Source: an uncultured Planctomycetia bacterium
GTDB lineage: Bacteria > Omnitrophota > Gorgyraeia > Pluralincolimonadales > Pluralincolimonadaceae
Length of the DNA: 64,000 nt
Direction of reading: 5' to 3'
NCBI GenBank assembly: GCA_964650515.1
Contig: CAZYUB010000001.1
Span: forward strand, 132,640-196,639
In this document: piece after piece, positions 12,159 through 24,480 of the stretch
How positions within the stretch are numbered: position 1 is the stretch's first letter
How the letters are laid out: each line of letters starts with the position of its first letter
Position numbers and translations under genes: made by a program
The notes under the pieces: model-generated
Told to the model about the DNA's origin: nothing
The model's input: the letters and a program-made list of their open reading frames with translations, nothing else
The model's database searches: none

Positions 12159-12483
12159 AACAGCCGTTTTTCTCACGACTGTTTTAATCGTGGTAACGGC
12201 CGTCGCGCCGAATGCGCCCGCCGCGGAGATAAAGACAGTGAGCGGGCAGTTGGTCGACATAGACTGGGCCGGCGCTAAGATAGTCGTCAGTTGGCTCAGC
12301 CAGGACGACAACACGTTCCATGACGTCGCGATAAATGTGCCGGACAGCGCGAAGATCAGGCGCGGCGCGAATGAGATAAACTTTTCCGAGCTCGAGACGC
12401 CTTCCGACGTTACGGTAAAATATTCCGAAGACACCTACGGGAATGCGGAGCTCATAACCCTCAGCGTGACGAATCCCTACTGA
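12151..12483 (+). CDS. small secreted hypothetical protein
   Basis: Signal peptide ending APNAPAA. ATG 12151 is in frame with the 12097 ORF and overlaps the upstream stop. Confidence 0.45.
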   Translation: MSKTAVFLTTVLIVVTAVAPNAPAAEIKTVSGQLVDIDWAGAKIVVSWLSQDDNTFHDVAINVPDSAKIRRGANEINFSELETPSDVTVKYSEDTYGNAELITLSVTNPY

Positions 12484-12494
12484 ACGGAGATAAT

Positions 12495-12899
12495 GTGCGT
12501 AAATACTTTCTCGCGGCAGCCGCAGCTGCCCTAACCCTGGCCGTAATAGCGGGCTGCGCGCAGGGCGGCTCGAGAGAAGCCAAGAAGATCATCGAAAAGG
12601 ACTCGGGCAAGACCATCGAGATGAGGGTCGGGGGCAGCATACTCGTAGAGCTCCCCGGGAACCCGTCGACCGGTTATATGTGGGAAGTGTCATCGATGGA
12701 CCGCTTGGTCCTGCAGAAGATAGGTGACCATAAGTTCTCCACGAATTCGAACGTCATCGGCGCGCCCGGGAAAGTATCGATGCGGTTCAGGGTCATCGGG
12801 CCGGGCAGGACGAATCTGGCCCTCGCCTACCGCAGGCCGTGGGAAAAGAACGTGCCTCCGGCGAAGGCCTTCTCCGTGGATGTCATAGCGGTGAAATAA
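12495..12899 (+). CDS. chagasin-family (I42) peptidase inhibitor lipoprotein
   Basis: Lipoprotein signal (AGC). NPSTGYMWEV matches the NPTTG[YF]xW chagasin motif. Confidence 0.7.
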   Translation: MRKYFLAAAAAALTLAVIAGCAQGGSREAKKIIEKDSGKTIEMRVGGSILVELPGNPSTGYMWEVSSMDRLVLQKIGDHKFSTNSNVIGAPGKVSMRFRVIGPGRTNLALAYRRPWEKNVPPAKAFSVDVIAVK

Positions 12900-12900
12900 G

Positions 12901-13779
12901 ATGCCGGCGCCCGTGCTGACCGTGACACTGAATCCCGCGGTAGACAGGACCGTCGACGGCCCGCGCGTCAAGCTGAGTGCCGGCGGCAAGGGCATAAATG
13001 TCTCCCGCGCGCTGAAGGCGCTCGGCGTGGAAAGCGTGGTTACGGGATTCGCCGGCGGTAAGACGGGAGATTTCATAAGGTCCGCGCTGAAGGAAGAGCG
13101 CATAAGCGGGCGTTTGGTCCGTATCCGCGGCGCATCGAGGCAGAACCTCACCGTGATCGGCAGGGGCGGCAAGATAACGCGCCGTATCGAAAAGGGCCCT
13201 GCTGTCTCTACGGAGGAATTCAGGAAATTTAAAAAAGTATTCGAGAAGCTCCTGCGCGGCCGGCGTTATGTGGTATTTTCCGGCGCCAACGCGAACGGCC
13301 TAAAGGACTCGGCTTACGCGGAACTCATAAGGATAGCGAAAAAGAACGGCGTAATGACCGCCCTCGATACGAGGGACGCCGCGCTTAAAGAAGGCCTTAA
13401 GGCAAAACCGGATATCGTGAAACCGAATATCAAGGAAGCGCGGTATATTTGCGGGAAAGCCCCGCTGGAATGTTTGCGCGATAAAGGGGCGCGGACGGTC
13501 CTGTTGACGATGGGCAAGGCAGGCGCCGCGGCTACGGACGGCAGGGATACGGCCATCGCGCGCCCGCCTAAAGTGAGGGCGGTAAATGATGTCGGCTGCG
13601 GTGACGCGTTCCTCGCGGGTTTCATCGCTTACAGGTTGAAGGGAAAGGATTTTAAAGAGTCGGTCCGGGCGGCAACTGCCGCAGGCGCCGCGAATGCTGC
13701 GGCGAAAGCCGCATGCGTCGTCCCGGGTTCGTTTAAAAGGCAGGATTTCCTGGAGATCCTCAGGCGGACGGATGTATAA
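12901..13779 (+). CDS. PfkB-family sugar kinase (1-phosphofructokinase/tagatose-6-phosphate kinase-like)
   Basis: C-terminal DVGCGDAF and an N-terminal GG(K)G.N motif. Confidence 0.8.
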   Translation: MPAPVLTVTLNPAVDRTVDGPRVKLSAGGKGINVSRALKALGVESVVTGFAGGKTGDFIRSALKEERISGRLVRIRGASRQNLTVIGRGGKITRRIEKGPAVSTEEFRKFKKVFEKLLRGRRYVVFSGANANGLKDSAYAELIRIAKKNGVMTALDTRDAALKEGLKAKPDIVKPNIKEARYICGKAPLECLRDKGARTVLLTMGKAGAAATDGRDTAIARPPKVRAVNDVGCGDAFLAGFIAYRLKGKDFKESVRAATAAGAANAAAKAACVVPGSFKRQDFLEILRRTDV

Positions 13780-15370
13780 GATAAAAGAAAGTGATATAAT
13801 AGAGACTTTCGTAAGGTCCGGCGGCCACGGCGGGCAGAACGTGAACAAGGTCTCGACCTGCGTGCACCTTAAGCATATCCCGACGGGCATAGAGGTGAGA
13901 TGCTCGCGGGAACGTTCGCAGGCCGCGAACCGCATGATAGCGCGGCACATACTCGCGATGAAGGTCGAGGAGAAGCTGCTCGGCCGGCAGTCGGAGATAC
14001 GGCAGAGGATAGAAAAGATACGCAGGCAAAAACGTAAACGCTCAAAGAGGGCTAAAGAGAAGATGCTAGCCGACAAAAAAATGCATTCGGAGAAGAAGTC
14101 CTTGCGCAGGAAGGTCACGGCTTTATCGGTTGTGTTATTGTTGTCCGTGCAGTCGGCCGCCTTCGCCATCAACTGGCGCGCGAACCTGCAGGATGCGATC
14201 AAGACGGCAAAGGACGGCAACAAGCCGGTCATGGTGGATTTCTATACCGACTGGTGCGGCTGGTGCAAGAAACTCGACAGCGAGACGTATTCTAATCCCA
14301 AGGTCTCTAAACTGGCGGAAAAATTCGTCTGCGTGAAGGTAAACGCAGAAAGGGAGCCGGCGCTCGCGGCAAAGTACCAGGTCACGGGATACCCGACGAT
14401 ACTCTTCCTCGACGGCAGCGGGAAGTCCCTGGCAAGGATACCCGGCTACCTGCCTCCCGACCGCCTGTATAGCGAGATGAACAAGGTTTTGCTGACGATG
14501 CCCCAGGTAGAGGACAAGGCGGGCGAGGGCAAGGGCGGCGGTTTCATAGTCCTTGATGACGGGCCCAAACTGGACAAGGACGGCAAGCCGGTCCCGCCGA
14601 AAACGGTAAAGCAGGATTTTGTGTATAACGGGTTCGTCGAAGCCAAAGGCGACGAACTAATGGTCCAGATAAATTACAAGGGAGAGACGTATTACGTGAC
14701 CGAGGGCGAATCGTTTGGCGGCTTTACGGTCAAGTCGGCGAACAAGGATAAAGTGGTCCTCTCCGGCCCCGGCGGCGCGGAGACCGTGCTGGAATTCAGG
14801 AAACCCGTAAAATCCGGCGAAGCGCTCGGTGCGATTAAAGACATGTTCGTCGAAATATCGCCGTCCGACGAACCGGTCGAATACGACACCACGGCGTCAG
14901 CTCCCGACATGATGGCAGGCAGGGCGAGGACGATCGTCTCGCTGCTTCCTATTGTAATATTCCTGCCGATCATGCTCGTCTTTTATGTTTATTATTCCCT
15001 CTGCCTGCAGTTCATCGCGCAGAAGACGAAGGCGGATAATATATGGCTCGCGTGGATCCCGGTAATAAACGTCTTCCTGCTGCTTAACATAGCGAAGATG
15101 AAATACAGGACATTCCTGTTCCCGGTGTTTGCGCTCATCGCGCTGACCGCGCTGCCGTTATTCGGGGCGTTCACGCCCCTGATCGGGCTGGTCCTGACGC
15201 TTGTCATGATGCTGACCGCGATCTATTTCATATTCCTTATGGTCTTCGTCTGGTACAGGATATCCGTGGAAAGGGGCAAATCGACGGGGCTGTCGGTCGT
15301 GCTCGCGATACTTATGTTCATATCCCCGCTGAACCTTTTTGCGCTCGGATACCTGGCTTTCTCTAAATAG
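13772..15370 (+). CDS. arfB: ArfB-like peptidyl-tRNA hydrolase (GGQ) reading frame continuing without a stop into a signal-peptide / thioredoxin-like (WCGWC) / multi-TM protein; the second protein may start at ATG 14086
   Basis: GGHGGQNVNKVST and a basic tail typical of ArfB (about 105 aa). Then MHSEKKSLRRKVTALSVVLLLSVQSAAFA resembles a signal peptide, followed by a thioredoxin fold (DWCGWCKK) and a C-terminal polytopic membrane domain. There is no in-frame stop between them; an A7 run sits at the junction. Confidence 0.6.
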   Translation: MYKIKESDIIETFVRSGGHGGQNVNKVSTCVHLKHIPTGIEVRCSRERSQAANRMIARHILAMKVEEKLLGRQSEIRQRIEKIRRQKRKRSKRAKEKMLADKKMHSEKKSLRRKVTALSVVLLLSVQSAAFAINWRANLQDAIKTAKDGNKPVMVDFYTDWCGWCKKLDSETYSNPKVSKLAEKFVCVKVNAEREPALAAKYQVTGYPTILFLDGSGKSLARIPGYLPPDRLYSEMNKVLLTMPQVEDKAGEGKGGGFIVLDDGPKLDKDGKPVPPKTVKQDFVYNGFVEAKGDELMVQINYKGETYYVTEGESFGGFTVKSANKDKVVLSGPGGAETVLEFRKPVKSGEALGAIKDMFVEISPSDEPVEYDTTASAPDMMAGRARTIVSLLPIVIFLPIMLVFYVYYSLCLQFIAQKTKADNIWLAWIPVINVFLLLNIAKMKYRTFLFPVFALIALTALPLFGAFTPLIGLVLTLVMMLTAIYFIFLMVFVWYRISVERGKSTGLSVVLAILMFISPLNLFALGYLAFSK

Positions 15371-15379
15371 GGGAGCGGC

Positions 15380-16513
15380 ATGTTCTGGAAAAGATTCTTT
15401 ATAGTAATAGGCATACTGGTCATACTGGCTTTTCTCGCGCAGCTTTTGATCGCGCCGCGACTGAAAGACCTGCTGACCAAGGCGATCAGGGACTCGCTCG
15501 GCATCGAGGTCTCCGTCGGGGACTGCGAGCTCAGCATGCTGAAGAGGAAGATCGTCCTTTCCGATGTGGCGATAATGAACCCCGAGAAGAAGGACGACTA
15601 CCTGCTGAAGGCGAGGCAGATAAGCGCGGACTTCTATTTCCTCCCGATATTGTTCAACAGGCAGATATTGAGGGTCGTGTCCCTTACGGACCCGGAAGTA
15701 ATACTCTACCTCGACGAATCCGGCAAGTTCAGGATACCCGAGATAAAGCGGGACACGAAAAAGGTGCCGGGCAGGGGAACGGGCGAGCTCCTGTTCAAGA
15801 AACTCGAGGTCAAGAACGGCAACTTCAAGTTTATAGACCAGAAGGTCTCAAAGCCGGCGACCATAACGCAGGTCTCGAACATAAACGGCAAGGTCGTAAA
15901 CTCGATATCGCTCTCCGACAGGACGGTGATAACCAACGTGAACGTCAAAGGAGCCATAGAGGGGCAGGGGACGTTCTCGGTGGACGGCAAGGGCGCGTTC
16001 CTGCAGAAGCCGCCCAGCTTCGACGGCACCGTGAAGTTGAGCAAGGTCCCCCTGCAGAAGTTCTCGCCTTATTACGGCAGCAACCTTTCGGTCAAGGTCA
16101 ACAGGGGCGACCTTTACCTTGATACCGCGGCGCTTTGCGAAAAGGGCCTGTTGAACGTCAAGAGCGAGGTCAAGATAGAGAACGTGGAGCTCGAGCCCGT
16201 CGGGGACCCGACGCAGACCGTGCTCTTCGAGATAAAGACGAGCGACGTCATAGAGTTCCTGAAGGACGAGAACAACACGGTAAAGTTCAGCTTCGAGATA
16301 AACGGCGACCTCAGCAAGCCGGACTTCAAATGGGGCGCCGAGATGACGCGCGCGCTGCGGAATTCCATGCTGAAGGCCTTCACTGACGGCGTGATCCGGC
16401 TTTTCAGGACGCCGGAGAAGGCCGGAGAGACGATAGGCGGCCTGCTCGGCGGAGAAGCAGGCGAGGCGGCGAAGAAGATAGGCGAGAAGCTGCAGGGTAT
16501 ATTGGGAAAATAG
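15380..16513 (+). CDS. membrane-anchored AsmA-like/DUF748-like protein (hypothetical)
   Basis: N-terminal TM segment, then a beta-rich periplasmic region. Family assignment is tentative. Confidence 0.45.
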   Translation: MFWKRFFIVIGILVILAFLAQLLIAPRLKDLLTKAIRDSLGIEVSVGDCELSMLKRKIVLSDVAIMNPEKKDDYLLKARQISADFYFLPILFNRQILRVVSLTDPEVILYLDESGKFRIPEIKRDTKKVPGRGTGELLFKKLEVKNGNFKFIDQKVSKPATITQVSNINGKVVNSISLSDRTVITNVNVKGAIEGQGTFSVDGKGAFLQKPPSFDGTVKLSKVPLQKFSPYYGSNLSVKVNRGDLYLDTAALCEKGLLNVKSEVKIENVELEPVGDPTQTVLFEIKTSDVIEFLKDENNTVKFSFEINGDLSKPDFKWGAEMTRALRNSMLKAFTDGVIRLFRTPEKAGETIGGLLGGEAGEAAKKIGEKLQGILGK

Positions 16514-16515
16514 GG

Positions 16516-16544
16516 TTGACTTGCCGGCCCTAAAATTATATAAT
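16516..16544 (+). promoter_or_regulatory. sigma70-type promoter for tRNA-Phe (TTGACT-17-TATAAT)
   Basis: Exact consensus -35 and -10 hexamers with a 17 nt spacer, about 30 nt upstream of the tRNA. Confidence 0.7.
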
Positions 16545-16576
16545 AACCGAACCTTTCGTAGATCCGTAAACTTATG

Positions 16577-16651
16577 CCGAGGTAGCTCAGTTGGTAGAGC
16601 GCGGGACTGAAAATCCCGGCGTGAGCGGTTCAATTCCGCTCCTCGGCACCA
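16577..16651 (+). tRNA. tRNA-Phe (anticodon GAA)
   Basis: Acceptor GCCGAGG/CCTCGGC, anticodon loop CTGAAAA, T-loop TTCAATT, encoded CCA. Confidence 0.9.
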
Positions 16652-16683
16652 TTTCACATACAAATAAAGAGGAGGGAGCGGTC

Positions 16684-16968
16684 ATGGCAAAGCTCGTGAA
16701 GAAGGCCGGGGCGAAGAAGGTAACGTTCAAGCTTATAGCGCCCTACGCCAACAGTGTCAGTGTCGCCGGAGATTTCAACAATTGGGACGTCAACGGGGCC
16801 CCGATGAAGAAGGACTGGAAGGACGACTGGACAGCCGCCCTTAACCTTAAGCCGGGTCGTTACGAATATAAATTCTATGTCGACGGTTCATGGCAGAATG
16901 ACCCGAGCTGCGACGTTTGCGTGCCGAACGAGTTCGGAAGCACCAACTGCGTCGTCGAGGTAAAATAA
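16684..16968 (+). CDS. CBM48 / AMPK-beta-like glycogen-binding domain protein (standalone)
   Basis: 94 aa. KFYVDGSWQNDP and FKLIAP..SVSVAGDFNNW are typical of CBM48/AMPK1_CBM. ATG 16684 follows GAGGAGGG. Confidence 0.7.
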   Translation: MAKLVKKAGAKKVTFKLIAPYANSVSVAGDFNNWDVNGAPMKKDWKDDWTAALNLKPGRYEYKFYVDGSWQNDPSCDVCVPNEFGSTNCVVEVK

Positions 16969-16973
16969 GCCAA

Positions 16974-17049
16974 GCTGGCGTAGCTCAGTTGGTAGAGCAG
17001 CGGTTTCGTAAATCGCGGGTCGGAGGTTCAATCCCTCTCGCCAGCTCCA
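16974..17049 (+). tRNA. tRNA-Thr (anticodon CGT)
   Basis: Acceptor GCTGGCG/CGCCAGC, anticodon loop TTCGTAA, T-loop TTCAATC, encoded CCA. Confidence 0.85.
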
Positions 17050-17067
17050 TAAACTTCAGAGTCCAAT

Positions 17068-18342
17068 TTGGCGAGATTCAGGGAAGTCCTAAAAGAACGT
17101 AATTTCTTCCTGCTCTGGCTTGGGCAGATAATCTCGCAGTTCGGCGACAGGCTCAACCAGATGGTCCTCATCGCGATCGTCTACGCGAGGACCCCCGGCT
17201 CGCCTTTTGAGCTCGCGAAATTCTTCTCGTTCACCATTATCCCGTCTTTCTTCGTGAGCCCGCTCGCGGGCGCGTTTATCGACAGGTGGGACAAGAAGAC
17301 CACGATGATCGTCTGCGATATCCTGCGCGGGCTTGTCGTCCTGGCGATCCCGCTTCTGTTCGTGGACGTGAGCTCCGCGCCGTCAGTCCCGATATATGCT
17401 GCGGTCTTTATAATATTCGCGGTAAGCTGTTTCTTCCTCCCGGCGCGGCTTTCGATAATCCCGGACCTCGTCTCGAAGGAGAAGCTGCTCGTCGCGAACT
17501 CGCTCTTCACGGTGACGGGGATGATCGGGGCGATCTTCTGGTTTGTCGTCGGCGGGGTGCTAGTCGAGATGGTAAAGGTCAGGAACGGCCTCCTGTTGAA
17601 CGCGCTGATATATTTCTTGTCGGCGGCGGCGATAGTATTCATAGCGGGCCACCACAGGCGGGCGAAAAAAGCCGCCGGCCCGGTCAGCGCGGCCAATATA
17701 GAAAAGATCATAAAGACCTCGATCGTCAGGGAGATAACCGACGGGCTCAAGTACCTGAAGCATAACCGCGAGGCAAGGTTCGCCTTCCGCGTGCTCTTCG
17801 TCATGATGGCGGGCGCCGGCGCGGCGTATTCGGTCATAATCATATTCATACAGGACTCGATGGGCTCGATAACGAAGGACCTCGGCCTGCTTGGCCTTTT
17901 CCTCGGGGCGGGGTTTTTCGCCGGCTCGCTGGCCTACGGCAAGGCGGGCCACCGCGTTTCCATGCACAAGACGATATTCGGGTGCTTCATCGCGGCCGGT
18001 TTCGCGATGCTCTCGTTCACGATGCTGCTGAAATGGACCCAGTCGTTCATGGCCGCGTCTGTGGCGGCGATGGTCCTCGGCATATTCCTCGCGCCGATAG
18101 GGATCTCGACGAACACGATGATACACGAGATGGTCGTTGAGAACATGCGAGGCAGGATATTCAGTTCGCTAGGTATCGCGATGAACATCGCGTTCCTGAT
18201 ATTCATGCTCTGCTCGTCGAAACTTGCGGAGACGCTGGACAGGAGCTATATATTATACGCGGTCAGCGGTTTTTACGTCGTAGCGGGGATACTCGGGTTT
18301 GCGGACCTTTACTTTTTCAAGGAGAAACATATAAATGCCTGA
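17068..18342 (+). CDS. MFS transporter
   Basis: About 12 predicted TM helices. FIDRWDKK motif in loop 2-3. TTG start. Confidence 0.8.
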   Translation: MARFREVLKERNFFLLWLGQIISQFGDRLNQMVLIAIVYARTPGSPFELAKFFSFTIIPSFFVSPLAGAFIDRWDKKTTMIVCDILRGLVVLAIPLLFVDVSSAPSVPIYAAVFIIFAVSCFFLPARLSIIPDLVSKEKLLVANSLFTVTGMIGAIFWFVVGGVLVEMVKVRNGLLLNALIYFLSAAAIVFIAGHHRRAKKAAGPVSAANIEKIIKTSIVREITDGLKYLKHNREARFAFRVLFVMMAGAGAAYSVIIIFIQDSMGSITKDLGLLGLFLGAGFFAGSLAYGKAGHRVSMHKTIFGCFIAAGFAMLSFTMLLKWTQSFMAASVAAMVLGIFLAPIGISTNTMIHEMVVENMRGRIFSSLGIAMNIAFLIFMLCSSKLAETLDRSYILYAVSGFYVVAGILGFADLYFFKEKHINA

Positions 18343-19264
18343 TCTCGACGTTATCATAATCGGCGGCGGGCCGGCGGGGCTCACGGCCGGCATTTACGCC
18401 TCGCGCGCGAGGCTGAAGGCGCTGCTGCTTGAGAAGATGATGCCGGGAGGGCAGATATTGACGACGCCCCTGCTCGAGAATTACCCCGGTTTTTCAGAAG
18501 GGGTTGTGGGGCTCGGCGTAATAGAAGAGATGGTCAAGCAGGCCCAGCGTTTCGGGCTCGAGATAAAGACGGCGGAGGTAACAAAGATAGAGGATAAGGG
18601 CTTCGTGAAGGCCGTGGCTTCCGACGCGGGGATTTTCAACGCGTCGGCGGTGATCTTTGCGATGGGCGCGAGCTATTCCAAGCTCGGCGTCCCCGGCGAG
18701 GAGAAACTGGCCGGCCGCGGAGTATCATATTGCGCGACATGCGACGGCCCGCTCTTCAGGAACAAGGAAGTGGCTGTTGTCGGAGGCGGCGATACCGCGA
18801 TAGAGGAAGCCCTGCACCTCGCGCATTTCTGCTCCAGGATAACCGTGATACACCGCAGGGACGAATTGCGCGCGACAAAGATACTTCAGGAGCGGGCGTT
18901 CGCGGAGAAGAAGATAAATATCGCCTGGGACAGCGTCGTCGCCGAGATATTGGGGACGGAGAAAGTCGAAGGCGTCATGACGAAGAACGTCAAGACGTCC
19001 GAGCAGAAGATAGTGCCCGCCGCGGGCGTCTTCTTTGCCGTCGGGTTCACGCCGCATACAGGTATCGCAAAAGGGCTTGTCGCGACGGACGATAAGGGGT
19101 ATATTATAACGGATGACGACATGGCCGCCTCGCGCGCGGGATTCTTCGCCGCAGGGGATTGCCGCAAGAAACTGCTGCGCCAGTTCGTGACGGCCTGCGG
19201 GGACGGCGCTACGGCCGCATTCGCCGCGCAAAGATATATCGAACAAAAAGGAGGGGTAAGATGA
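18335..19264 (+). CDS. trxB: thioredoxin-disulfide reductase
   Basis: GGGPAG FAD motif. CATC redox site. GGGDTA NADPH motif. Confidence 0.9.
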   Translation: MPDLDVIIIGGGPAGLTAGIYASRARLKALLLEKMMPGGQILTTPLLENYPGFSEGVVGLGVIEEMVKQAQRFGLEIKTAEVTKIEDKGFVKAVASDAGIFNASAVIFAMGASYSKLGVPGEEKLAGRGVSYCATCDGPLFRNKEVAVVGGGDTAIEEALHLAHFCSRITVIHRRDELRATKILQERAFAEKKINIAWDSVVAEILGTEKVEGVMTKNVKTSEQKIVPAAGVFFAVGFTPHTGIAKGLVATDDKGYIITDDDMAASRAGFFAAGDCRKKLLRQFVTACGDGATAAFAAQRYIEQKGGVR

Positions 19265-19671
19265 AGAGAGTTTTATTGGCAGCCGCGATAGTCGCGTTGA
19301 GCGCCGGGCTGTGTTTTGCCGCGAGCCCCGAAAAGAAAGCCAAGTCCGCGGCCAATAACTGGCTGGAGATGATAGACAATAAGGATTACGCGCAGAGCTA
19401 TGACGCCTCGGCCTCGTTCTTCAAGGCGAATATCAACAAGGGCGACTGGATCCAGACCTGCGGGTCGCTCAGGGACATGCTCGGCAAGGCCGAATACAGG
19501 AAACTCGTATCCTCAAAGCGTGAAAGCAGGATGCAGGGCGCCCCGGACGGCGAGTACGTGATACTTATCTATGAGACGGATTTCAAGAAGAAGAATAACG
19601 CGCAGGAGATAGTCGTGCCGATGCTCGACAAGGACGGCAAATGGCGCGTATCGGGATACCACGTCGATTAA
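19261..19671 (+). CDS. secreted DUF4019-like protein
   Basis: Signal peptide. ATGA coupling to trxB. Confidence 0.5.
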   Translation: MKRVLLAAAIVALSAGLCFAASPEKKAKSAANNWLEMIDNKDYAQSYDASASFFKANINKGDWIQTCGSLRDMLGKAEYRKLVSSKRESRMQGAPDGEYVILIYETDFKKKNNAQEIVVPMLDKDGKWRVSGYHVD

Positions 19672-19692
19672 GGGCTAACAACGGAGTTGACC

Positions 19693-20022
19693 ATGTCTGA
19701 CAACGTTTTACATTTAAAGGACGCGGATTTTGACAAGCAGGTGATCGAGGCGAAAGGCGTTGTGCTCGTGGATTTCTGGGCCGAATGGTGCATGCCGTGC
19801 AAGATGCTGGCTCCCGCCATTGAGGCGGTCGCTAAGGACTACGCTGGCAAGGCGATATTCGCGAAGGTCGAGGTCGACGAGGCCGGAGAGACCGCCTCGC
19901 GCTTCAATGTAATGAACATCCCGACGCTGATATTCTTCAAGGACGGCAAAGAAATGAGCCGCGCCGTGGGAGTGGTCTCGAAGGAGGAGATATCAAGAAG
20001 GCTCGACGCGCTTCTGAAATGA
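19693..20022 (+). CDS. trxA: thioredoxin (active site WCMPC)
   Basis: Thioredoxin fold. FWAEWCMPCK. GGAG is 6 nt before ATG 19693. Confidence 0.85.
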   Translation: MSDNVLHLKDADFDKQVIEAKGVVLVDFWAEWCMPCKMLAPAIEAVAKDYAGKAIFAKVEVDEAGETASRFNVMNIPTLIFFKDGKEMSRAVGVVSKEEISRRLDALLK

Positions 20023-20618
20023 ATTTCGCGGTATTCTGCTCGGGGCAGGGGACGAACCTGCAGGCGATAATCGATGCGGTTAAGCAAAAACGCTTAACCG
20101 CGCGGCTCGCGCTCGTCGTCTGCGACAACCCCAAGGCCTATGCAGTCGTGCGGGCCCGTAAGGCGGGTGTGCCGGCGGCGGTCTTCGACCCGAAGGATTT
20201 CCCGTCGAAGAAAGAGCTCGAATCCGCTATGATCCGCGAACTTTCCGCGAGGAAGATAGGGCTTATCGCGCTGGCCGGTTATATGAGGATATTGAGCGAT
20301 GGTTTCGTCAGGAAATACAGGAACAGGATAATCAACGTCCACCCGGCGCTCCTGCCCGCATTTAAAGGTGGACAAGCGATAAAAGATGCGATACAATACG
20401 GAGTCAAAGTAACGGGCCCGACGGTTCACTTCGTGACCGAGGAGGTCGACGGCGGTCCCATCATCCTACAGGAAGCGTGCCCCGTAAAAGACAACGATAC
20501 GGAAAAGACACTCCTGGCGCGCGTCCATAAACTGGAACATAAGCTGTATCCCGAAGCGATAGGGCTTTTCGCGAGGGGGAAGCTTACGGTAAGGGGCAGG
20601 AAGGTAATCGTAAAGTAG
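20019..20618 (+). CDS. purN: phosphoribosylglycinamide formyltransferase
   Basis: N-terminal SG.GTNLQAI and central INVHPALLP/HFVTEE.D.GPII motifs. Confidence 0.9.
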   Translation: MNFAVFCSGQGTNLQAIIDAVKQKRLTARLALVVCDNPKAYAVVRARKAGVPAAVFDPKDFPSKKELESAMIRELSARKIGLIALAGYMRILSDGFVRKYRNRIINVHPALLPAFKGGQAIKDAIQYGVKVTGPTVHFVTEEVDGGPIILQEACPVKDNDTEKTLLARVHKLEHKLYPEAIGLFARGKLTVRGRKVIVK

Positions 20619-23611
<2,993 letters not shown>

Positions 23612-24161: not shown

Positions 24162-24184
24162 CTAGTTCCCTAAGAAATCTACCG

Positions 24185-24477
24185 CGGGGTGGAGCAGCCT
24201 GGTAGCTCGCAAGGCTCAATGTCCTGTCAAAGAACGGGACGATGGGCTCCTCGGCCGGAAACGGCCGAAGGATAGTCTGTCAAATTCGGTGAAGCCCGAA
24301 AAGGTAATACCGAGCCAAGCCTGTCGAAAGACGGGAAGGTGTAGAGACTAAACGGCAGATCCCGGTTTTCCGGGAAAGATATAGTCCAGACTACGAACTC
24401 CCGAAAGGGAGGCGGCGAAAGCCGAAGTAGCATGCATAACCTTGAGGCCAGAGGTTCAAATCCTCTCCCCGCTACCA
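24185..24477 (+). tRNA. initiator-like tRNA-Met (anticodon CAT) gene interrupted by a group I intron; exon 1 is 24185-24216, exon 2 is 24435-24477
   Basis: Exons give acceptor CGCGGGG/CCCCGCT+A+CCA with a C1/T72 mismatch. D-arm GGAGCAGCCTGGTAGCTC is identical to E. coli tRNA-fMet. Anticodon stem CAAGG/CCTTG with loop CT|CATAA. T-loop TTCAAAT. Confidence 0.8.
24217..24434 (+). mobile_element. group I (self-splicing) intron in tRNA anticodon loop
   Basis: Contains the exact group I S element AAGATATAGTCC and the R-like AGAGACTAAAC. Terminal G precedes the 3' exon. Inserted after U33 of the anticodon loop. Confidence 0.75.
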
Positions 24478-24480
24478 ATA

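Follow-up and report, generated by a model that had tools for sequence, protein, structure and literature searches.

A C12orf65-type GGQ hydrolase gene probably joined in frame, by deletion, to a Sec-exported thioredoxin membrane protein in an uncultured Omnitrophota bacterium

Results

The window, by which we mean the whole 64-kb stretch of DNA analysed here, carries a single uninterrupted open reading frame on its forward strand (13772..15370, +; 532 aa and a TAA stop) whose product consists, in order, of a GGQ domain, a basic tail, the h and c regions of a signal peptide, a thioredoxin domain, a small beta domain and a multi-TM C-terminus. Its start ATG shares bases with the stop codon of an upstream pfkB-family kinase gene (12901..13779, +; ATGTATAA), a synteny that is the same in L001-L004, and a DUF748/AsmA-like gene (15380..16513, +) lies downstream, a neighbour kept in fused and unfused relatives. 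Pfam matched aa 3-109 to RF-1 (PF00472) with 79.6 bits, above the cut-off of 35, and aa ~127-238 to thioredoxin families; in the hydropathy profile, aa 114-135 form a hydrophobic segment and ~aa 380 to 531 a hydrophobic block. The initial annotation was therefore right that a GGQ frame without a stop of its own runs into a signal-peptide-like, thioredoxin and multi-TM protein; the current product names, 'peptide chain release factor-like protein' and 'thioredoxin-related protein', each cover one half only. Scanning 12400-17100 for promoters and terminators gave nothing above shuffled expectation and no internal signal at the junction, and a tblastn search of the window for a second arfB-like copy matched only the query itself.

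The GGQ peptidyl-hydrolase (RF-1) core (13772..14026, +; aa 1-85) is of the classical-ArfB / C12orf65 type. It contains GGHGGQNVNK at aa 17-26, with the GGQ itself at aa 20-22 (codons 13829..13837). The Pfam search of the fused protein gave no match to PF03462, the PCRF / codon-recognition domain. The best relative of solved structure is human C12orf65/mtRF-R (PDB 7a5h_C, E 9.6e-19), to which aa 4-107 align without gaps at residues 55-157, whereas the E. coli ArfB chains in the PDB reach only E ~1e-4. Burroughs & Aravind 2019 (PMC6514570) separated classical ArfB from ArfB class 1, whose GGQ domain has a helical insertion, alpha-i, between its last two beta strands. Query aa 6-115 align to ArfB residues 12-135, ArfB being 14 residues longer, and the alpha-i insertion is absent both in this alignment and in the ungapped one to the insertion-less C12orf65. 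With E. coli ArfB (YaeJ)/ICT1, the class 1 proteins, the fused factor shares the GGQ motif, a similar pattern of basic tail residues (R..SK..K..LA.K....S..K..R.KV) and, presumably, stop-codon-independent peptidyl-tRNA hydrolysis, but it is without their roughly 14-25-aa insertion. By sequence comparison, human C12orf65/mtRF-R ('classical ArfB') is thus a closer relative of the GGQ part than E. coli ArfB is. The label 'ArfB' given to it earlier holds for the GGQ and basic tail, but the NCBIfam ArfB equivalog NF006718 reaches only 40.9 bits where the cut-off is 100, in a match limited to aa 2-34, and the closest solved relative is C12orf65/mtRF-R.

The polybasic C-terminal tail of the GGQ protein (14027..14116, +; aa 86-115, net charge +12) includes 'MHSEKKSLRRK'. 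Within an alignment of 14 sequences the tail pattern RRQKRKRSKRAKEKML..K..HS.KK..R is invariant or nearly so, and the family alignment shows the tail kept in full up to RRK(V) in the fused proteins. Since the conserved basic tail reaches ~V115 by way of 'MHSEKKSLRRK', as both the Pfam RF-1 hit and the alignment of the family show, the GGQ protein does not end at the A7 run, and what had been taken for a new n-region beginning after that run belongs to the rescue factor's own conserved tail; this tail now sits where the n-region of the signal peptide would be. Like the fused protein, human C12orf65/mtRF-R and bacterial classical ArfB (PMC6514570) have a GGQ domain that lacks the alpha-i insertion and, after it, a positively charged helix at the C-terminus. 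Standalone proteins of this type measure ~120-170 aa and keep that helix free, whereas here the C-terminus runs on into the core of a signal peptide and an exported protein of 400 aa, with 417 more residues in frame after the tail. The standalone homologs stop 1-13 residues past the tail, and their bacterial classical-ArfB members have at their very end a conserved acidic pentapeptide ((E/G)ADYE) that the fused protein lacks. This loss aside, the hydrophobic extension on the tail might itself harm ribosome binding.

By homology to the signal peptides of unfused relatives, aa 115-132 (VTALSVVLLLSVQSAAFA; 14114..14167, +) are the signal-peptide h and c regions. The features of a signal peptide are recognisable as an n-region (KKSLRRK), an h-region (VTALSVVLLLSV; Kyte-Doolittle maximum 2.48) and a c-region (QSAAFA/I; the slash in this and like motifs marks the cleavage point) with small residues at -3 and -1, and signal peptidase I is predicted to cut between A132 and I133 (between 14167 and 14168). 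All 27 of the 27 unfused homologs have canonical signal peptides of 24-27 aa, nearly all ending A-x-A/I-x-W; the motif AxA/I.W is present in nearly all of the 31 family members, and the fused proteins retain AFA, VFA or TFA ahead of INW. A Sec signal peptide lies at the extreme N-terminus, whereas this h-region begins at residue 115-116; a signal sequence ~104-116 residues from the N-terminus is not canonical. AlphaFold2 (AF2) models a single helix over aa 50-126, from the tail into the h-region, with pLDDT <50 at aa 121-130 in the c-region.

Beyond the predicted cleavage site lies a thioredoxin-fold domain (14168..14497, +; aa 133-242) with a CGWC active site at aa 162-165 (Cys codons 14255..14257 and 14264..14266). 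Pfam matched it to PF13098 (2.4e-17), PF13899 (2.9e-15), PF00085 and PF03190, and Foldseek to the C-terminal domain of DsbD (1vrs_D / 2fwh; 32% identity, TM 0.76-0.80, with 1vrs_D at 0.76). The domain is DsbD-gamma-like, a periplasmic type. It shares the thioredoxin fold, the CxxC motif, PF13899 and PF03190 with DsbD gamma and DsbH-type periplasmic thioredoxins; unlike in DsbD, no alpha and beta domains precede it, and it is succeeded by a beta domain, uncharacterised so far, and by a multi-TM domain of an unnamed family. The former (14618..14794, +; aa 283-341) is modelled by AF2 at pLDDT ~80-93 between low-confidence linkers and had no Pfam match. The latter, a C-terminal multi-helix membrane domain recognised from hydropathy and AF2 (14900..15367, +; aa 377-532), has hydrophobic segments at 380-416, 423-443, 445-499 and 504-531 that AF2 models as helices at pLDDT >90; a Pfam search with the C-terminal half that admitted E values as high as 10 returned only sub-threshold noise (PagP, DUF5684) and assigned no family.

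The same fusion, with identical junction logic, occurs in P0001, P0002 and P0003, at 90, 75 and 73% identity, respectively. The exact P0001 protein, which comes from anaerobic digester or sediment samples, is found on 17 contigs from JGI, NCBI and ENA assemblies; four of these loci were shown, from JGI 3300009776, JGI 3300025706, NCBI GCA_029567255.1 and ENA ERZ27257456. Comparison of the window with L005 and L006 (dS ~0.8) gave dN/dS values of ~0.06-0.07 for the ArfB-like part (GGQ core 0.07-0.08, tail 0.02-0.04), 0.36-0.38 for the signal-peptide h/c region and 0.11-0.13 for the thioredoxin domain. Since the ArfB-like value is below that of unfused ArfB-like pairs (0.11-0.13), constraint was not relaxed after the fusion. 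Both halves have been under purifying selection since they were joined, the GGQ domain and tail being the most constrained.

In the unfused loci L007-L010 and L177 an arfB-like gene lies directly upstream of the thioredoxin (trx) gene, and a GGAG(G) motif stands 7-9 nt ahead of the trx ATG. The coding sequences of the pair share 8 nt at the upstream gene's stop and the trx start (ATGAATAG); L007, L009, L010 and L177 carry GAT TAT GAA TAG / ATG AAT AGG. The nearest unfused pair is 86% identical in the ArfB-like part and 73% in the thioredoxin part. Standalone Omnitrophota pairs (such as, on L177, P0121 and the gene after it, and, on L007, P0004 and the arfB-like gene before it) thus have two open reading frames where the window has one, in the same neighbourhood, with ArsP_1 or PfkB upstream and DUF748 downstream. 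The ancestor was therefore a pair of translationally coupled genes, one for a classical-ArfB/C12orf65-type GGQ protein of 120-140 aa and the other for a Sec-exported DsbD-gamma-like thioredoxin membrane protein. A stop codon between the two halves is absent from the fused relatives and present, with its 8-nt overlap, in the unfused ones. The earlier view that there should be two genes describes the ancestral state; here the two are truly joined, and the premise that a signal peptide cannot work in the middle of a protein was not supported.

As read from the alignment with L007, L009, L010 and L177, the junction at K114-V115-T116 (14111..14119, +) traces to one 3n+1 deletion of ~22-31 nt. From the first gene, whose product in the unfused loci ends 'ME(A/T)(D/G)(Y/D)E*', it took the stop and the 5-6 acidic codons before it, and from trx the Shine-Dalgarno sequence, the start 'MNRK..' and the first n-region codons, so that the polybasic tail now abuts the hydrophobic core that belonged to the signal peptide of the partner. 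The window has one open reading frame because this deletion removed the stop/start overlap.

The A7 homopolymer (14075..14081, +), across which the initial annotation saw the frame run, is incidental: it falls in Lys codons of the tail (AAA AAA A/TG), and the in-frame ATG that it enters (14081..14083, Met104) is conserved no more than the run itself. Two fused relatives, L005 and L006, lack the run and have ATC (Ile) at this position, within AATAAGAAGATC and AACAAAAAGATC, respectively. Three-frame translation of ~14030-14180 in the window and six relatives found no nearby stop after A7 in the +1 or -1 frame of the window, as the initial annotation had already noted for single-base changes; L001, L005 and L006, unlike the window, have a +1-frame TAG ~33 codons further on. 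Since homopolymers are prone to error and two genes were the ancestral arrangement, an assembly or indel error at or near A7 that hides a stop between two real genes deserved consideration. The same open frame nevertheless recurs across independent assemblies and in relatives whose identity goes as low as 73%, two of them without the A7, and the junction differs from the unfused state by a deletion of ~22-31 nt rather than by a 1-nt indel. We reject such an error and regard the chance of one as negligible.

The gene family works in rescue and termination, and prfB has a programmed +1 frameshift, which brings to mind either a stop-less arfB ended by ribosome rescue or a similar programmed frameshift at AAAAAAA. 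Here, however, the frame carries on through a downstream protein that is conserved and under selection, to finish at an ordinary TAA, the A-run is neither a conserved slippery site nor trailed by a stop in any frame of the window, and no terminator or RNA structure rises above shuffled expectation. Frameshifting at A7 was rejected, and we give practically no credence to either version. Internal initiation, by which a separate thioredoxin precursor would start at Met98 or Met104, leaving the long fusion as a minor by-product, has in its favour two in-frame ATGs (14063 and 14081) with purine-rich sequence before them and, for a start at Met98, a long but plausible n-region. A conserved start at Met104 was rejected on the Ile in L005 and L006. 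Met98 belongs to the tail, being just as conserved in the standalone factors and replaced by Ile in L007, P0039 and P0045. Moreover, the ancestral trx Shine-Dalgarno sequence and ATG were deleted and, as there is no stop, ribosomes on the GGQ part must run on into trx. We consider internal initiation very unlikely.

Discussion

Our analysis shows a genuine in-frame fusion, fixed in one lineage of uncultured Omnitrophota, that arose by deletion and whose two products would be re-separated by export and cleavage; we hold this reading as a whole to be probable. From the retention of the h-region and of AxA/INW, we infer export with the tail as n-region, followed by signal peptidase cleavage. The GGQ domain would fold in the cytoplasm, the Lys/Arg tail would serve as a positive-inside n-region, and the internal h-region would direct the chain to SRP/Sec. 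Signal peptidase I would then cleave AFA/INW, yielding the same mature periplasmic thioredoxin-membrane protein that the unfused relatives make and a GGQ factor of ~132 aa with a short C-terminal hydrophobic anchor, which might stay tethered to the membrane or be freed by signal-peptide proteases. The fusion may have been tolerated because ordinary signal-peptide processing splits the two proteins again. The natural comparison is with Sec signal peptides cut by signal peptidase I and with the internal signal sequences of polyproteins. Like Sec signal peptides, the fused protein has a positive n-region, a hydrophobic core of ~11 residues, AFA at -3/-1 and a mature part as in the unfused homologs; unlike them, its n-region is the functional tail of a folded 115-aa cytoplasmic protein rather than a few residues after fMet. 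The retention of AxA could in part come from constraint on the mature N-terminus (FA/INW) and not from cleavage.

The protein could instead remain uncleaved as a bifunctional membrane protein, the segment acting as a type II signal-anchor that permanently tethers the GGQ factor to the cytoplasmic face, possibly to rescue ribosomes or 50S-peptidyl-tRNA stalled at the translocon. The continuous AF2 helix from aa 50 to 126 into the membrane segment, the strong conservation of the GGQ domain and tail since the fusion, and the recurrence of fusions to membrane-targeted partners would all fit, as would the mitochondrial case, in which C12orf65 acts on the large subunits of mitoribosomes bound to the membrane (10.1101/2021.03.10.434893; PMC9757039). 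Yet the hydrophobic core is only ~10-11 residues long (ALSVVLLLSV) and is followed by a polar c-region and the conserved A/V/T-x-A, the segment is homologous to the cleaved signal peptides of 27 unfused relatives, and, in other fusions of this kind, a lipoprotein partner (P0039) and a patatin-Omp85 outer-membrane partner (P0045) need cleavage to mature. We therefore think a permanent anchor unlikely and favour cleavage.

Those other fusions place the locus in a wider setting. Among the matches listed, five further proteins (P0045, P0043, P0039, P0042 and P0289) independently join a tail of this type to the signal peptide of an unrelated exported partner, which brings the recurrent fusions to at least six. 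P0045, with its patatin and Omp85 partner, is on 5 contigs (3 loci shown, from 3 samples) and P0043, with a DUF3108 partner, on 2; P0039, P0042 and P0289 are each supported by one or two contigs, the partner having a lipobox (ISGC) in P0039 and an AWA/Y site in P0289. Such fusions are rare. A scan of genome contigs with GGQNVNK gave 13 informative loci out of 80, all standalone (0/13 fused); most of the 80 were canonical release factors, because GGQNVNK also matches RF1/RF2. None of the 80 metagenome matches listed was fused (0/80), these being a background sample of relatives at 50-75% identity that lies outside the fused clade. Re-separation by signal-peptide processing would explain why, among the matches listed, fusions with an intact tail join only signal peptides. 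Our literature search found no ArfB/C12orf65 fusion to a transmembrane or signal sequence and nothing relevant on ribosome rescue in Omnitrophota; Burroughs & Aravind 2019 (PMC6514570) reported a C12orf65-MJ1316 fusion but none to a membrane protein or signal peptide.

It is conceivable, though we would not wager on it, that the fusions were selected and not merely tolerated. A membrane-anchored C12orf65-type GGQ hydrolase, made 1:1 with a secretory protein, would then release nascent chains from ribosomes or 50S-peptidyl-tRNA stalled at SecYEG, and the six fusions would be convergent translocon-proximal rescue factors. In mitochondria, mtRF-R acts with MTRES1 on split large subunits (10.1101/2021.03.10.434893). 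If true, the selected fusions would be a bacterial equivalent of the membrane-associated rescue by mtRF-R in mitochondria.

The apparent paradox of a rescue-factor gene without a stop codon is thus resolved as a clean, datable event, a frame-restoring deletion at an overlapping stop and start. It exposes an unusual compatibility between two genes, in that the polybasic tail of a rescue factor can double as a Sec n-region, and export could re-separate the products. An active anchored product would make this the first GGQ rescue factor tethered to the membrane in bacteria and would offer a handle on the uncharacterised bacterial relatives of human C12orf65/mtRF-R.

Results

A single unbroken reading frame of 532 codons, closed by TAA, occupies 13772..15370 (+); its start and the stop of the pfkB-family kinase gene just upstream overlap by 8 nt (ATGTATAA; 13772..13779). 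The N-terminal part carries GGHGGQNVNK (GGQ codons 13829..13837, +) and matches the RF-1 domain (PF00472, aa 3-109, 79.6 bits against a cut-off of 35). Pfam places thioredoxin-family domains at aa ~127-238. In the hydropathy profile aa 114-135 form a single hydrophobic segment, and ~aa 380 to 531 are hydrophobic as a block. An A7 run lies at 14075..14081 (+), directly followed by the in-frame ATG of Met104 (14081..14083, +). Three-frame translation around the junction found no nearby stop in either alternative frame downstream of the A-run, confirming that a +/-1 change there creates none, as the initial annotation had stated. Its suggestion of a stop-less arfB awaiting ribosome rescue fails because the frame runs on to TAA.

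A whole-protein search with the fused frame recovered three full-length relatives having both domains: P0001 (532 aa, 90% identity; NCBI name 'peptide chain release factor-like protein [Candidatus Omnitrophota bacterium]'), P0002 (531 aa, 75%) and P0003 (539 aa, 73%). The identical P0001 sequence is found on 17 contigs, and the four loci shown (JGI 3300009776, JGI 3300025706, NCBI GCA_029567255.1 and ENA ERZ27257456) all have the order PfkB - fusion - DUF748 in common with the window; P0003 and P0002 lie on other JGI contigs in the order ArsP_1 - fusion - DUF748. The same frame therefore occurs in independent assemblies and is intact through ~27% protein divergence, which rules out assembly error and bears out a real fusion. 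In addition, the fused relatives L005 and L006 lack the A7 run (AATAAGAAGATC, AACAAAAAGATC) and encode Ile (ATC) at Met104; since neither feature is conserved, the homopolymer is incidental, and the proposed homopolymer error is refuted.

An ArsP_1 (PF03773) permease gene lies directly upstream of the arfB-like gene in L007-L010, L005, L006 and L011-L013, a pairing that spans trx-linked lineages and an unrelated patatin-Omp85 fusion lineage. The window and the P0001 lineage have no ArsP_1 there, pfkB adjoining the fusion. ArsP_1 and the arfB-like gene may form a conserved operon.

The initial annotation took MHSEKKSLRRK as the start and n-region of a second protein. However, the RF-1 profile match extends across MHSEKK, and RRQKRKRSKRAKEKML-x-KK-x-HS-x-KK-x-x-R-x-K is (near-)invariant in an alignment of 14 close homologs of the GGQ part (A1). 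By this match and alignment, and with Ile replacing Met104 in relatives, the segment is the basic tail of the rescue factor rather than the n-region of a second protein that starts there. Standalone GGQ proteins stop just 5-6 residues past this tail, usually in acidic '(E/G)ADYE'. Their C-termini include EADYE, GADYE, xxDE and xME (A1; L017-L033, L097-L176); this conserved acidic end has no described role and is precisely the piece deleted by the fusion.

With the NCBIfam ArfB equivalog model the score is 40.9, below the cut-off of 100, and the match is confined to aa 2-34. The best solved-structure match is human C12orf65/mtRF-R (7a5h_C, E 9.6e-19, aa 4-107 against 55-157, ungapped), whereas E. 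coli ArfB chains match at ~1e-4 only and are 14 residues longer across the aligned span. Burroughs & Aravind, 2019 (PMC6514570) recognise two classes: 'ArfB class 1', to which E. coli ArfB and ICT1 belong, has an alpha-i insertion, and 'classical ArfB' lacks it and groups with C12orf65; judged by its sequence, the window protein matches the latter side. C12orf65/mtRF-R is reported to work on the large subunit alone, together with the S4-domain protein MTRES1, whereas the ICT1/ArfB tail probes the empty mRNA channel (10.1101/2021.03.10.434893; PMC9757039). Standalone members number thousands of matches, mostly 120-140 aa, many from Omnitrophota and others from Planctomycetia, Verrucomicrobiota, Myxococcales, Elusimicrobia and further groups. 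In P0051, P0057 and P0066 the same domain is C-terminal, behind long unrelated stretches that are either low-complexity sequence or a fragment of arginyl-tRNA synthetase; given their normal end after the tail, these seem to be ORFs called too long or read through from upstream, not functional fusions.

The downstream part also has more distant homologs (P0004-P0033, ~360-427 aa), which have no RF-1 domain. All 27 unfused homologs (27/27) begin with a canonical signal peptide of 24-27 aa, in which M-(N/S)-K-(K/R) precedes a hydrophobic core and, in nearly all, A-x-A|I-x-W comes last; the fused proteins retain the core, with AFA, VFA or TFA preceding INW. The thioredoxin domain (CGWC, aa 162-165) most resembles the C-terminal (gamma) domain of DsbD, which is periplasmic (NCBIfam; Foldseek against 1vrs_D/2fwh, 32% identity, TM 0.76-0.80). 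These signal peptides and this likeness indicate that the mature protein has to be exported. An AlphaFold2 model (45-sequence alignment, mean pLDDT 81) has the GGQ domain and a single long helix (aa 50-126) that continues from the tail into the hydrophobic core. Confidence is low in the c-region (aa 121-130); beyond it come the thioredoxin domain (aa 134-242), a small domain of beta strands (aa 283-341) and a helical membrane bundle (aa 377-530), the last two with no Pfam family. A few genes downstream of the fusion, the syntenic relatives (L001, 9304..12263; by synteny, window ~17200..20700) encode a flavoprotein resembling thioredoxin reductase (Pyr_redox_2), a DUF4019 protein and a thioredoxin of 109 aa, suggesting a second, cytoplasmic thiol-redox module near the periplasmic thioredoxin-like protein.

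In L007-L010 the two parts are separate genes, in the order ArsP_1 - arfB-like (120-139 aa) - trx-membrane (422-427 aa) - DUF748, with an 8-nt overlap between arfB-like stop and trx start. The arfB-like gene ends AAA ATG GAG GCC GAT TAT GAA TAG (K M E A D Y E *), the trx gene begins one frame over with ATG AAT AGG AAT ACA (M N R N T), and GGAGG sits 7 nt 5' of that ATG. The nearest unfused outgroup, L177 (P0121; 86% identity to the window in the ArfB-like part, 73% in the trx part), likewise has two overlapping genes, RRKMETGDE* over MNRKMATVAAAIALLMSVQAAAFA|INW, where the fused genes read ...RRK-VTALSVVLLLSVQSAAFA|INW. The fused genes are shorter by ~31 nt than L177 and ~22 nt than L007, both 3n+1, exactly the shift that puts the trx gene, one frame over, in phase with the arfB-like gene. 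By this comparison the deletion took the acidic end of the arfB-like protein together with its stop codon, the Shine-Dalgarno sequence, and the start codon and opening n-region residues of trx. The junction is shared by 4/4 fused sequences, making one event in their common ancestor the parsimonious reading. Eight-nt stop/start overlaps recur in the cluster, at pfkB/fused ORF and at arfB-like/trx (ATGAATAG; L007/L010/L177), which suggests tight translational coupling; such overlaps are a ready substrate for deletions restoring frame.

Between the window and L005/L006 (Nei-Gojobori, dS about 0.7-1.2), dN/dS was 0.06-0.07 for the whole ArfB-like part (core 0.07-0.08, tail 0.02-0.04), 0.36-0.38 for the signal-peptide h/c region, 0.11-0.13 for the thioredoxin domain, 0.16-0.18 for the middle region and 0.18-0.21 for the TM domain. 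Unfused ArfB-like pairs (L177, L007, L010) gave 0.11-0.13, so the fusion brought no relaxation of constraint. No other portion of the fused gene is as conserved as the GGQ domain with its tail, which opposes the idea of a decaying leader.

Fusions of the GGQ family are rare overall: 0/120 best ArfB-only matches, 0/13 informative GTDB loci, 0/80 sampled metagenome loci and a handful at most among the 150 best cluster representatives. Among the matches listed, at least five further proteins have an intact tail, then a signal-peptide-like segment and an unrelated exported protein: P0039 (...RRAPARD-ILLVLLLATMISG|C, a lipobox), P0042 (...-IAIIILIFLNLSVFSC), P0043 (...LRKF-SLILFCVFCIKTSLVYS|E; DUF3108; NCBI and ENA contigs), P0045 (...LRKTP-ILVILIFFSMVINGNLEA|R; patatin and Omp85; 5 contigs, the 3 loci shown coming from 3 samples) and P0289 (...RKPVQLG-MILVFIMQLMRGAWA|Y). 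Truncated-tail fusions have other partners, a carbinolamine-dehydratase-like domain (P0366) and a permease-like membrane domain (P0382). By a crude check, ~4/46 genes downstream of standalone members encode a signal-peptide-like N-terminus. Exported partners in 6/6 are unlikely by chance (~1e-6 to 7e-4) if a 10-30% background applies, an estimate qualified by the non-exhaustive lists behind the fusions and by the trx clade, whose exported neighbour was fixed prior to fusion.

Elsewhere in the window, an initiator-type tRNA-fMet(CAU) gene at 24184..24478 (+) is split in its anticodon loop by a group I intron (24216..24413; Rfam RF00028, full-length model, 57.3 bits against a gathering score of 50), which leaves cgcggggtggagcagcctggtagctcgcaaggctca on the 5' side and taaccttgaggccagaggttcaaatcctctccccgctacca on the 3' side; ARAGORN made no call for the split tRNA there. 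Group I introns in tRNA-fMet are known from cyanobacteria; this one is in an Omnitrophota-like genome.

Discussion

Comparison of the sequences establishes that the genes are fused, how the fusion arose, that both halves are under selection and that the signal-peptide core is kept with its -3/-1 residues. We propose that the GGQ domain folds in the cytoplasm and that its Lys/Arg tail (net +12) would serve as a positive-inside n-region, the ~11-residue core and QSAAFA c-region engaging SRP/Sec. Signal peptidase I would then cleave after A132. One product would be the mature thioredoxin-membrane protein that unfused relatives also make, and the other a GGQ factor of ~132 aa bearing a short hydrophobic C-terminal extension. 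This GGQ fragment might stay membrane-anchored, or be freed if signal-peptide proteases of the RseP/SppA type trim the anchor. The fusion would thus be tolerated because ordinary export processing separates the halves again. The main rival is an uncleaved signal-anchor tethering the GGQ factor permanently; however, the hydrophobic core is short, the cleavage motif is conserved, and partners in other fusions require cleavage, all of which argue against it.

None of the parts is new in kind: the GGQ factor is of the classical-ArfB/C12orf65 type, the signal peptide is a Sec one and the thioredoxin is DsbD-gamma-like. Targeted literature searches found no description of a rescue-factor tail as signal-peptide n-region, nor of its recurrence; Burroughs & Aravind (PMC6514570) do not mention transmembrane or signal-peptide fusions, and public annotation of the fused protein covers one half only. 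The fusion is a tidy, somewhat surprising evolutionary event. The fusion would be of greater importance if the anchored GGQ factor turned out to be active in ribosome rescue close to the translocon.
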